Shown here: positions 15,068-17,002 of the stretch, piece by piece | How the letters are laid out: each line of letters begins with the position of its first letter | How positions within the stretch are numbered: the first letter of the stretch is position 1 | DNA from: Escherichia coli | GTDB lineage: Bacteria; Pseudomonadota; Gammaproteobacteria; Enterobacterales; Enterobacteriaceae | Length of the DNA stretch: 64,000 bases | Assembly (NCBI RefSeq): GCF_044647545.1 | Contig: NZ_CP172818.1 | Direction: 5' to 3' (one strand) | The notes under the pieces: model-generated | The model's input: the letters and a program-made list of their open reading frames with translations, nothing else | The model's database searches: none | What the model was told of the DNA's origin: nothing | Made by a program: the position numbers and the translations under genes

Positions 15068-15085
15068 CTGTCATAAAGTTGTCAC
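15068..15085 (+). promoter_or_regulatory. Pho box (PhoB binding site) of the phoA promoter
   Basis: CTGTCATAAAGTTGTCAC matches the direct-repeat Pho box consensus, about 60 bp upstream of the phoA GTG. Confidence 0.85.
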
Positions 15086-15147
15086 GGCCAAGACTTATAG
15101 TCGCTTTGTTTTTATTTTTTAATGTATTTGTACATGGAGAAAATAAA

Positions 15148-16563
15148 GTGAAACAAAGCACTATTGCACTGGCACTCTTACCGTTACTGTTTACCCCTGT
15201 GACAAAAGCCCGGACACCAGAAATGCCTGTTCTGGAAAACCGGGCTGCTCAGGGCGATATTACTGCACCCGGCGGTGCTCGCCGCTTAACGGGTGATCAG
15301 ACCGCCGCTCTGCGTGATTCTCTTAGCGATAAACCTGCAAAAAATATTATTTTGCTGATTGGCGATGGGATGGGGGACTCGGAAATTACTGCCGCACGCA
15401 ATTATGCCGAAGGTGCGGGCGGCTTTTTTAAAGGTATCGATGCCTTACCGCTTACCGGACAATACACACACTATGCGCTGAATAAAAAAACCGGCAAACC
15501 GGACTACGTCACCGACTCGGCTGCATCAGCAACCGCCTGGTCAACTGGTGTCAAAACCTATAACGGCGCGCTGGGCGTCGATATTCACGAAAAAGATCAC
15601 CCAACGATTCTGGAAATGGCAAAAGCCGCAGGTCTGGCGACCGGTAACGTTTCTACCGCAGAGTTGCAGGATGCCACGCCCGCTGCGCTGGTGGCGCATG
15701 TGACCTCGCGCAAATGCTACGGTCCGAGCGCGACCAGTGAAAAATGTCCGGGTAACGCTCTGGAAAAAGGCGGAAAAGGATCGATTACCGAACAGCTGCT
15801 TAACGCCCGTGCCGATGTTACGCTTGGCGGCGGCGCAAAAACCTTTGCTGAAACGGCAACCGTCGGCGAATGGCAGGGAAAAACGCTGCGTGAACAGGCA
15901 CAGGCGCGTGGTTATCAGTTGGTGAGTGATGCTGCCTCGCTAAATGCGGTGACGGAAGCGAACCAGCAAAAACCCCTGCTAGGACTATTTGCTGACGGCA
16001 ATATGCCAGTGCGCTGGCTAGGACCGAAAGCAACGTACCACGGCAATATCGACAAGCCCGCAGTTACCTGTACGCCTAATCCGCAACGTAATGACAGCGT
16101 ACCGACCCTGGCGCAGATGACCGACAAAGCCATTGAATTGTTGAGTAAAAATGAGAAAGGCTTTTTCCTGCAAGTTGAAGGTGCATCAATCGATAAACAG
16201 GATCACGCTGCGAATCCTTGTGGGCAAATTGGCGAGACGGTCGATCTCGATGAAGCCGTACAACGTGCGCTGGAATTCGCTAAAAAGGATGGCAACACGC
16301 TGGTCATAGTCACCGCTGATCACGCCCACGCCAGCCAGATTGTCGCGCCGGACACCAAAGCGCCGGGCCTCACCCAGGCGCTAAATACCAAAGATGGCGC
16401 AGTGATGGTGATGAGTTACGGGAACTCCGAAGAGGATTCACAAGAACATACCGGCAGTCAGTTGCGTATTGCAGCGTATGGCCCACATGCCGCCAATGTC
16501 GTTGGACTGACCGACCAGACCGATCTCTTCTACACCATGAAAGCCGCCCTGGGGCTGAAATAA
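15148..16563 (+). CDS. phoA: alkaline phosphatase
   Basis: GTG start ([21 protein letters not shown] signal peptide) gives 471 aa; ORF track starts further upstream at 15079. Confidence 0.9.
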
Positions 16564-16681
16564 AACCGCGCCCGGCGGTGAATTTTTGCTGTCGGGTGGT
16601 TTTTTTGCTGTTAGCAACCAGACTTAATGGCAGATCACGGGCGCAAACGCTCATGGTTAAAACATGAAGAGGGATGGTGCT

Positions 16682-17002
16682 ATGAAAATAACATTACTGG
16701 TTACCTTGCTTTTCGGACTGGTTTTTTTAACCACCGTCGGCGCTGCCGAGAGAACCTTAACCCCGCAACAACAGCGTATGACCTCCTGTAATCAGCAGGC
16801 GACGGCGCAGGCGTTGAAAGGGGATGCTCGTAAGACCTACATGAGTGATTGCCTGAAGAACAGCAAGTCTGCGCCTGGTGAAAAAAGTTTGACGCCACAG
16901 CAGCAAAAGATGCGCGAATGTAATAATCAAGCAACGCAACAATCTCTGAAAGGTGATGATCGTAATAAGTTTATGAGCGCCTGCCTCAAGAAAGCCGCCT
17001 GA
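16682..17002 (+). CDS. psiF: phosphate starvation-inducible protein PsiF
   Basis: ORF 16664..17002; start at MKITLLVTLL gives 106 aa; signal peptide plus two tandem copies of one motif. Confidence 0.85.
   Translation: MKITLLVTLLFGLVFLTTVGAAERTLTPQQQRMTSCNQQATAQALKGDARKTYMSDCLKNSKSAPGEKSLTPQQQKMRECNNQATQQSLKGDDRNKFMSACLKKAA

Follow-up and report, generated by a model that had tools for sequence, protein, structure and literature searches.

Gene content of the window

The DNA analysed here, referred to below as the window, is a 64,000-nucleotide segment of the Escherichia coli chromosome that runs from tauA to past nusB. Over the part that carries phoA-psiF and phoBR, the sequence is 100% identical to ST648-type strains. 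Between the phoA and phoB loci lie mak, proC, and aroL, while brnQ is located just 3' of phoR and sbcD is divergent from phoB. A terminator-like hairpin is found 3' of phoR (32500-32523). The window also contains a tract at 37625-38783 that would be very strange if its sequence is real. The remaining features are listed in Table 1.

Table 1. Genes and regulatory features of the phoA-psiF and phoBR loci, in window coordinates
Feature	Position	Strand	Description and source
phoA Pho box CTGTCATAAAGTTGTCAC	15068-15085	+	Two direct repeats, CTGTCAT-AAAG-TTGTCAC; exact sequence
phoA -10 hexamer TATAGT	15096-15101	+	Separated from the Pho box by 10 bp; read from sequence
phoA CDS	15148-16563	+	GTG start, 471 aa; ORF list; RefSeq annotation from a strain with 100% identity
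Predicted phoA intrinsic terminator	16569-16606	+	G+C-rich hairpin 16569-16598, then T7 at 16600-16606
Proposed psiF -10 element ACCAGACTTAA	16617-16627	+	Hexamer CAGACT 16619-16624, C before, TAA after
psiF start site (A)	16632	+	50 nt upstream of the ATG; Cappable-seq, U00096.2 position 402455, read score 11.35
psiF CDS	16682-17002	+	106 aa, PsiF_repeat; annotation; Pfam PF07769 on orthologue
phoB Pho boxes	30351-30379	+	Heptamers TTTTCAT, CTGTCAT, and CTGACGC starting at 30351, 30362, and 30373
phoB -10 hexamer CATAAT	30379-30384	+	Upstream box end (30368) 10 bp before the hexamer
phoB start site	30391	+	Cappable-seq, U00096.2 position 416325, mapped via K-12 phoB start 417142
phoB	30432-31121	+	ATG at 30432; annotation of identical strain
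Intragenic PhoB site in phoB ATTCACAGCACTGTCATA	30534-30551	-	Third-highest matrix score of the window (16.4)
phoR	31179-32474	+	Annotation of identical strain

PhoB sites upstream of phoA and phoB

A PhoB weight matrix was derived from 56 published ChIP-seq sites, none of them in the window, and used to score ~128,000 positions. The two highest scores fell upstream of phoB (30352, 21.3 bits) and phoA (15069, 19.7 bits), while the maximum in dinucleotide shuffles averaged 14.9 bits (sd 1.5) and 0.003 matches of at least 19.7 bits were expected in the window. Both boxes had been proposed in an earlier note on this DNA, which suggested a matrix scan against background as a check, and they stand far above that background. 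A search of the 64 kb with the consensus CTGTCATAWAWCTGTCAY, allowing up to 3 mismatches, returned 3 matches, all at these boxes: one at phoA with 2 mismatches and two at phoB, starting at 30351 and 30362. The expected number was 0.15, and none of 100 shuffles reached 3 matches.

The phoA Pho box was correctly placed before the GTG codon in the earlier note. It is an exact plus-strand match to CTGTCATAAAGTTGTCAC, lies 62 bp upstream of the GTG, and is identical to the K-12 ChIP-seq site TGTCATAAAGTTGTCACG. The promoter has no -35 hexamer, shares its layout with that of phoB, and differs from K-12 at a single spacer base, A for G at 15090. Its start site is probably near 15108; Cappable-seq data of non-inducing conditions contain no phoA start. 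Upstream of phoB, tandem CTGTCAT-type repeats had been described over 30351-30390. The repeats are there, with an 11-bp period that gives two overlapping 18-bp boxes (21.3 and 12.4 bits) whose 4-bp spacers are both AAAT; the range extends too far, taking in the CATAAT hexamer and running up to the start site at 30391. This promoter matches K-12 in full, where the ChIP-seq site is TTTCATAAATCTGTCATA.

In K-12, PhoB ChIP scores at the two boxes are 20 and 11, and deletion of phoB lowers RNA-seq counts from 310,112 to 1,548 for phoA (~200-fold), from 42,054 to 388 for phoR, and from 32,618 to 755 for psiF (~43-fold) (PMC10294691). The phoA and phoB sites are real Pho boxes, with binding and PhoB dependence taken from K-12, which is identical at both boxes. 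Each combines the repeat layout, a high score with an independent matrix, replacement of the -35 hexamer, and a 10-bp gap to the -10 hexamer. The E. coli Pho regulon promoters (pstS, phoA, phoB, phoE, ugpB) share this 18-bp box, 11-bp period, replaced -35, and 10-bp gap, and apart from the spacer base at 15090 we found no difference of substance from them. With this arrangement, the box would stand in for the -35 hexamer, ending 10 bp before TATAGT at phoA or CATAAT at phoB, and under scarce phosphate, phosphorylated PhoB on the box would recruit sigma-70 RNA polymerase. At phoB, such recruitment would result in auto-activation of phoBR, and at phoA it would produce the ~200-fold induction. 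As the earlier note recognized, these sites are well known, being K-12 ChIP-seq sites with PhoB-dependent RNA. They are textbook PhoB targets and among the best-studied bacterial activator sites, so finding them here is ordinary and adds nothing new.

The third-ranked match in the window, on the minus strand within phoB (Table 1), was overlooked in the earlier note. It corresponds to the '(phoB)' site at 417245 in the K-12 ChIP-seq list, and intragenic PhoB sites were transcriptionally inert in that study (PMC10294691).

The earlier note also described the two loci as a clustering of the Pho regulon, which did not hold up. A regulon cluster would be closer than chance and have co-regulated neighbours. 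The ~15 kb between phoA and phoBR is statistically unremarkable: on a 4.64-Mb circle, the probability that some pair of operons falls within 15.4 kb by chance is 0.22 for 9 Pho operons and 0.41 for 13. The genes mak, proC, aroL, brnQ, and sbcD are PhoB-independent in the published table (PMC10294691).

A conserved predicted terminator between phoA and psiF

The phoA stop codon and the psiF ATG are separated by 118 bp on the same strand, in line with the ~120 bp given in the earlier note. A terminator scan of this gap returned a 13-pair stem at 16569-16598, with a minimum free energy of -22.3 kcal/mol (z -3.1). The K-12 hairpin is more stable, at -28.5 kcal/mol; three G-U substitutions set the hairpin of this strain apart. 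In an alignment of 63 enterobacterial sequences, pairing held in 97.8% of cells, and compensatory (double) changes were seen in 7 of 9 pairs. None of 500 shuffles performed as well, and slid registers were all at most 59% paired. We conclude that an intrinsic terminator, as predicted from sequence, lies between phoA and psiF and that its stem has been maintained in Enterobacteriaceae through compensatory changes. The earlier note made no mention of a terminator-like hairpin in this gap.

psiF is co-regulated with phoA, as in an operon, dropping 43-fold upon phoB deletion in published RNA-seq. Under inducing conditions in K-12, read density was 219.0 reads per nt over phoA and 101.6 over psiF (psiF/phoA ~0.46), compared to 1.09 and 2.35, respectively, in the phoB deletion. 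From these counts, which RNA stability also shapes, we infer that the PhoB signal reaches psiF by read-through. Transcripts from the phoA promoter would encounter the terminator after phoA, and a sizeable fraction would continue, making psiF PhoB-dependent. The arrangement resembles leaky intercistronic terminators, in which a G+C-rich hairpin and U-tract follow a strong first gene and the downstream gene is expressed at a lower level but remains co-regulated. The hairpin after pstS in pstSCAB-phoU is one example and sets the expression ratio. Unlike in such systems, the phoA terminator also overlaps, through its 3' arm and T-tract, the -35 region of the putative psiF promoter.

A candidate sigma-S-type promoter for psiF

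A mapped transcription start lies within the gap, 8 nt past the hexamer CAGACT. Start positions were converted from U00096.2 to NC_000913.3 with what we take to be the correct offset, +776 (checked by internal consistency only), followed by -386599 to reach the window. The identical conversion puts the adrA (16934) and phoB (30391) start sites 7 nt past good -10 hexamers. The psiF start is weak (11.35), and its source culture was mid-log in minimal medium rather than stationary phase. In Salmonella SL1344, a psiF start site occupies the equivalent position, 7 nt after CAGACT.

The hexamer is embedded in a conserved block, CCAnnCTTA, present in 79 of 81 loci. The block is 10-12 nt past the T-tract in 71 of those and begins eleven bases past it in the window; this distance is near-fixed regardless of the distance to the ATG. 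Sigma-S determinants include a C just before the -10 hexamer and another at its first position (Peano 2015). The psiF element has both, together with the conserved A and final T and a mapped start site. It agrees with TATAAT at 3 of 6 positions, its -35 region is poor, and a sigma-70 consensus scan of the phoA-psiF gap found no promoter. The earlier note's remark that psiF has no obvious promoter is therefore fair for the raw sequence, but the start at 16632 lies behind a proposed sigma-S-type -10 element. Sigma-S-selective promoters such as omrA (Peano 2015) share the two C residues, the A and final T, the TAA, the degenerate -35, and RpoS dependence, whereas psiF differs from them in being missing from the sigma-S ChIP-seq list in the text and supplement of that study.

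Expression data from stationary phase separate the two genes. In Table S7 of Cho 2014, log2 values for psiF were 10.9, 11.1, and 11.1 in the wild type compared to 7.0, 7.4, and 7.8 in an rpoS deletion, while those for phoA were 6.9, 6.7, and 6.8 compared to 8.4, 8.6, and 7.4. In published tables, the rpoS dependence of psiF amounts to ~12-fold in K-12 and 73-fold in EDL933. Cho 2014 reports no separate psiF transcription unit, and its start site table has no psiF start. Taken with the mapped start, these data suggest that CAGACT serves as the psiF -10 element and may be used directly by the sigma-S holoenzyme; the RpoS dependence of psiF could also be indirect. The psiF promoter is likely responsible for the RpoS-dependent, phoA-independent expression in stationary phase.

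Other sigma factors were considered and rejected. A sigma-54 reading of GGTGGTTTTTTTGC fits GG-N10-GC but not the remaining consensus. A sigma-E reading of the conserved block (GAAC ... TCACA) needs a spacing that is not kept in E. coli, and a sigma-70 pair at the block has no acceptable -35 at 16-18 bp.

Alternative explanations for psiF expression

On the earlier note's reading, psiF would have no promoter and would only follow phoA within one operon, which we consider quite unlikely. The same-strand 118-bp gap, the PhoB dependence of psiF, the empty sigma-70 scan, and RegulonDB-derived tables, which give only a phoA-psiF unit with PhoB, are all as expected for a simple operon. An obligate operon would have neither terminator nor promoter between its genes, however, and here a conserved predicted terminator separates phoA from psiF and a capped 5' end lies at 16632. 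Nor would an operon alone account for stationary phase, where psiF is high with phoA at background and rpoS deletion moves the two in opposite directions, or for Salmonella, which is without phoA and keeps a mapped psiF start. Co-transcription is retained as the best explanation of PhoB control, through read-through, but not as the whole of psiF expression. It is unlikely that CCAnnCTTA instead binds a protein or an sRNA, or directs RNA processing within a read-through transcript. The poor match to TATAAT would fit such a role, as would reports of psiF as a target of the sRNA CpxQ and of an RcsB site in Salmonella; the published positions of those two sites, however, are closer to the Shine-Dalgarno sequence or at +7 to +21, away from the block. 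Cappable-seq enriches triphosphate ends, one of which lies 8 nt past the hexamer, and the block keeps its distance to the T-tract and not to the ATG.

Two further possibilities concern how PhoB reaches psiF. The drop in the phoB deletion might be indirect, by way of altered RpoS activity on the psiF promoter rather than read-through; psiF is strongly RpoS-dependent, and RpoS is known to rise on phosphate starvation. In the table that records this drop, however, other RpoS-dependent genes changed little (csiE log2 +0.4, otsB -0.5, neither significant) while psiF changed 43-fold, and lineages without phoA keep a high-scoring Pho box before psiF. We regard an indirect route as very unlikely. It is extremely unlikely that PhoB acts on psiF's own promoter through a second, weak intergenic Pho box. 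The candidate, a 12.4-bit minus-strand match at 16681-16698, overlaps the ATG, faces the wrong way, and lies downstream of the start site; chance alone would give ~3.4 matches this strong in the window, and high-resolution ChIP-seq shows the phoA peak only. We rejected this match as chance level. On the plus strand, no PhoB matrix score above 6 bits was found between 16300 and 16700.

Two probable inputs to psiF and their fate in lineages without phoA

The terminator, the separate start site, and RpoS-dependent expression with phoA silent lead us to conclude that two inputs act on psiF: read-through, which brings PhoB control, and a promoter of its own. We hold the full model, Pho-box promoters at phoA and phoB combined with a doubly controlled psiF, with considerable confidence. 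The second promoter would start psiF RNA at 16632, with a -10 element that begins 12-13 bp past the T-tract; at this distance, the terminator 3' arm and T-tract (GGTGGTTTTTTT) would fill the -35 region of the promoter.

In the E. cloacae complex, Leclercia, and C. sedlakii, which lack phoA, a Pho box is kept before psiF, and in 5 of the 6 loci it scores 19.5-20.4 bits. The hairpin in these lineages is eroded (-6.4 to -17.1 kcal/mol, compared to -20.0 on average in loci with phoA), while GGTGGTTTTTT and the -10 block are retained. Salmonella also has no phoA, yet a separate start site has been mapped there for psiF. After loss of phoA, the E. cloacae complex would thus have kept the Pho box and an eroded hairpin, and Salmonella the promoter only. 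A 14.5-bit Pho-box candidate in the iraP-psiF interval of S. arizonae was set aside, as its score falls to 11.1 in S. diarizonae and no -10 hexamer follows it at 10 bp.

We somewhat favour a more specific proposal, in which the terminator 3' arm and T-tract have a second role, making up the upstream half of a psiF promoter that is conserved and of sigma-S type. The resulting 60-bp module would leakily stop phoA and start psiF, giving separable PhoB and RpoS inputs, of which lineages without phoA kept one or both. No description of a terminator-promoter module of this kind was found in the searchable literature.

For annotators, the label 'phoA-psiF operon' understates the locus, since psiF appears to be insulated by a conserved terminator and to be transcribed from a promoter of its own in stationary phase. 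For this reason, reporters or knockouts designed on the assumption of simple co-transcription would give a misleading picture of how psiF is regulated. The overlap of terminator and promoter in one module, together with what became of it once phoA was lost, may offer a small, testable case of regulatory rewiring.

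The Pho boxes at phoA and phoB are confirmed

Gene order was taken from the E. coli FDAARGOS_497 annotation placed over the window. The 14700-17200 region was found in 5,425 of 5,426 complete E. coli genomes and is 100% identical to a strain set that includes FDAARGOS_497 and ST648. ddlA precedes iraP, and proC, yaiI, aroL, yaiA, aroM, ppnP, rdgC, mak, araJ, sbcC, and sbcD lie, in that order, between adrA and phoB.

Features of the phoA-psiF and phoBR regions, in window positions
Feature	Position	Detail	Source
67-aa "hypothetical protein"	14402-14605	between ddlA and iraP	RefSeq annotation
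iraP	14787-15047	upstream of phoA	FDAARGOS_497 annotation
phoA Pho box	15068-15085	CTGTCATAAAGTTGTCAC	sequence match
phoA	15148-16563		FDAARGOS_497 annotation
Hairpin	16569-16598	13 pairs, G+C-rich; inside the 118-bp phoA-psiF gap	
T-tract	16600-16606	seven T	
CCAnnCTTA block	16617-16627	ACCAGACTTAA	
psiF	16682-17002	adrA next	FDAARGOS_497 annotation
phoB heptamers	starts 30351, 30362, 30373	TTTTCAT, CTGTCAT, CTGACGC; 11-bp period	
phoB	30432-31121		FDAARGOS_497 annotation
Intragenic PhoB site in phoB	30534-30551, minus	ATTCACAGCACTGTCATA; 16.4 bits, third in matrix scan	
phoR	31179-32474		FDAARGOS_497 annotation

The earlier note had reported Pho boxes at phoA and phoB, a finding that is correct and already known. 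The phoA box occupies exactly the positions noted earlier, with TATAGT 10 bp after it (15096-15101) and the phoA GTG 62 bp after it. With up to 3 mismatches to the Pho box consensus, three matches were found in 64 kb, solely at the phoA and phoB sites (0.15 expected; 0 of 100 shuffles reached three). We also derived a log-odds matrix from 56 of the 59 PhoB site sequences that Fitzgerald et al. 2023 list in their Table 1 (PMC10294691), the other three being inside the window, and scored about 128,000 window positions with it. Position 30352 ranked first (21.3 bits), followed by 15069 (19.7 bits) and minus-strand position 30534; the best score in 300 dinucleotide-preserving shuffles had a mean of 14.9 and an sd of 1.5, and 0.003 matches are expected at 19.7 bits or more. 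The phoB and phoA sites, ranked first and second, therefore score far above background.

The third site, absent from the earlier note, is the "(phoB)" ChIP-seq site of K-12, in a study that held intragenic sites to be transcriptionally inert (PMC10294691). The next-best matches, at 46432-46449 (14.2 bits), 37974-37991 (13.9), and 41161-41178 (13.0), are within the shuffled-sequence range and are not ChIP-seq sites.

Published K-12 data agree with these assignments. Both sites are ChIP-seq peaks (scores 20 and 11), and deletion of phoB lowered RNA from 310,112 to 1,548 for phoA and from 32,618 to 755 for psiF, with phoR down ~100-fold (PMC10294691). The phoB promoter region (30240-30466) is identical in K-12, and the phoA promoter differs from it at a single spacer base between the Pho box and the -10 hexamer, 15090 (A here, G in K-12). 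The 63-bp phoA promoter had a match of at least 99% in 93 of 5,362 records, so A at 15090 looks like a minority allele, assuming that the usual single mismatch falls at that base.

Start sites were converted to window positions with an offset of +776, which we take to be that between two K-12 genome versions; besides the psiF site discussed below, it places start sites for adrA (16934) and phoB (30391) 7 nt past good -10 hexamers. For phoB, the Cappable-seq site is U00096.2 position 416325 (Ettwiller et al. 2016) and the hexamer is CATAAT (30379-30384). This leaves 10 bp between the end of the upstream phoB box and the -10 element, a geometry like that at phoA. The phoB repeats had been assigned to 30351-30390; the repeats stand, but the 3' limit does not, as that range takes in the -10 hexamer and discriminator.

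The 37974-37991 match falls inside an anomalous A+T-rich tract of ~1.16 kb between malZ and acpH (37625-38783), whose G+C content is only 5-13% and in which stretches of poly-A and poly-T are very long. The tract had no match in E. coli genomes, with matches resuming at 38784. The otherwise identical FDAARGOS_497 carries a 1,656-bp segment at the same place, with a 481-aa hypothetical gene. The two align collinearly (score 574; shuffles reach no more than 408), and most G/C of the FDAARGOS_497 segment has been deleted or turned to A in the tract. Rather than natural DNA, the tract seems to be a corrupted copy of artefactual origin, from the assembly or the data. Its presence also makes the acpH reading frame end differently (208 aa, vs ~193 aa annotated).

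The spacing of phoA and phoB

The two loci lie 15.3 kb apart, which had been called Pho regulon clustering. On a 4.64-Mb circle, the chance that some pair of operons falls within 15.4 kb is 0.22 for the nine operons confirmed by Fitzgerald et al. (PMC10294691) and 0.41 for thirteen. The published table shows no PhoB dependence for mak, proC, or aroL, which lie between the loci, for brnQ just past phoR, or for sbcD, which is divergent from phoB (PMC10294691). We see no basis for a functional Pho cluster.

psiF has its own promoter behind a conserved terminator

We aligned the region upstream of psiF from 80 PsiF-encoding loci, one genome per species. For a 9-pair stem in 63 distinct sequences, 97.8% of cells held standard pairs and seven of nine pairs showed changes on both sides; no shuffle reached this covariation, and slid registers were at most 59% paired. 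The stem is a maintained RNA structure and would most simply be the phoA terminator. The hairpin in the window (MFE -22.3 kcal/mol, z -3.1) is ~6 kcal/mol weaker than that of K-12 (-28.5 kcal/mol), from which it differs by three stem substitutions (16577, 16587, and 16592), each changing a Watson-Crick pair to G-U.

The CCAnnCTTA block was present in 79 of 81 sequences and lay 10-12 nt past the T-tract in 71 of 81; this distance is nearly fixed, while that to the ATG ranges from 25 to 151 nt. Taken as a -10 element, the block supplies CAGACT (16619-16624), a weak hexamer with a conserved A and final T, TAA after it, and two described sigma-S determinants, C at its first position and C at the base that precedes it (Peano et al. 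2015). A plus-strand Cappable-seq start site at U00096.2 402455 (read score 11.35), a modest signal from mid-log minimal medium (Ettwiller et al. 2016), converts to 16632, an A eight nt past CAGACT. For Salmonella SL1344, a published table lists a separate psiF start site and an RcsB box, TGGGATATTTCCCA, that spans +7 to +21; in the Salmonella loci, the position of this box puts the psiF start 7 nt past CAGACT. The Peano 2015 list of sigma-S holoenzyme targets does not include psiF, and Cho 2014 gives it no separate transcription unit. psiF has its own promoter, which is probably sigma-S-dependent.

Other elements were seen nearby. In L030, L055, L080, and other Enterobacter and Leclercia loci, a palindrome, TGTGAA-N2-TTCACA, lies ~10-25 nt upstream of the psiF ATG, between the proposed -10 element and the Shine-Dalgarno sequence; the equivalent place is occupied in Salmonella by the RcsB box, and E. 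coli carries a 27-nt insertion that is unrelated. Such leader elements may be lineage-specific operators. A strong Cappable-seq start site (U00096.2 402757, score 58) converts to 16934, inside the psiF coding sequence, 7 nt past TG-n-AATAAT and with adrA/dgcC 170 nt downstream, and therefore marks an adrA promoter embedded in psiF.

Terminator read-through best explains PhoB control of psiF

Expression of psiF can be uncoupled from that of phoA. In stationary phase, psiF log2 values were 10.9/11.1/11.1 in the wild type vs 7.0/7.4/7.8 in an rpoS deletion, while phoA was at background in the wild type (6.9/6.7/6.8) and rose to 8.4/8.6/7.4 in the deletion (Cho et al. 2014, Table S7). In EDL933, psiF was 73-fold RpoS-dependent, in a paper whose main text does not mention phoA. 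Per nt, the published counts (DESeq2-normalised, without length correction) leave 2.35 reads for psiF vs 1.09 for phoA in the phoB deletion, and give induced densities of 101.6 vs 219.0 (ratio 0.46).

Near psiF, there was no ChIP peak in K-12 and no credible matrix match for PhoB, and the RpoS-dependent genes csiE and otsB were unchanged in the phoB deletion (PMC10294691); terminator read-through is therefore the best explanation for the PhoB effect on psiF. Judging from the counts, transcripts from the phoA promoter would carry the signal through the terminator. The proposal that psiF is co-transcribed with phoA thus holds for PhoB co-regulation, but not for the supposed lack of a promoter, given the leaky terminator and the start at 16632.

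Natural loss of phoA supports this route. phoA was absent from 15 of 80 loci. Six of them, four from the E. cloacae complex, one from Leclercia, and one from C. sedlakii, keep a remnant. Five of these six retain a Pho box at 19.5-20.4 bits, now 260-540 bp from psiF, and their hairpins are eroded (-6.4 to -17.1 kcal/mol, vs a mean of -20.0 in phoA-bearing loci, n=66). Salmonella and six other loci lack a Pho box and form almost no hairpin (mean -5.2 kcal/mol), yet they retain the -10 block together with GGTGGTTTTTT itself or a sequence close to it, which suggests that the terminator 3' arm and T-tract double as part of the psiF promoter, occupying its -35 region.

Enterobacteriaceae have lost phoA several times, with iraP and psiF still adjacent, leaving a remnant with a Pho box in some lineages and nothing in others (fetched loci L016, L023, L025, L027-L029, L033, L034, L052, L057, L061, L062, L067, and L077). 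The context of L066 differs, with psiF after a phoA 3' remnant and neither iraP nor adrA nearby. In L025, from the type strain of Salmonella enterica subsp. diarizonae, psiF (3501-3818) has an in-frame stop at codon 62, which probably marks a pseudogene or stems from an error in sequencing. L028, titled Chryseobacterium sp. 18061, holds an enterobacterial iraP-psiF locus with a PsiF 87% identical to that of E. coli, which suggests a mislabelled or contaminated assembly.

These results amend the interpretation of the region twice: the 15-kb proximity of the Pho loci is without meaning, and psiF, which sits behind a conserved, leaky terminator, is not merely co-transcribed with phoA. The weaker terminator hairpin could increase psiF read-through in this lineage.
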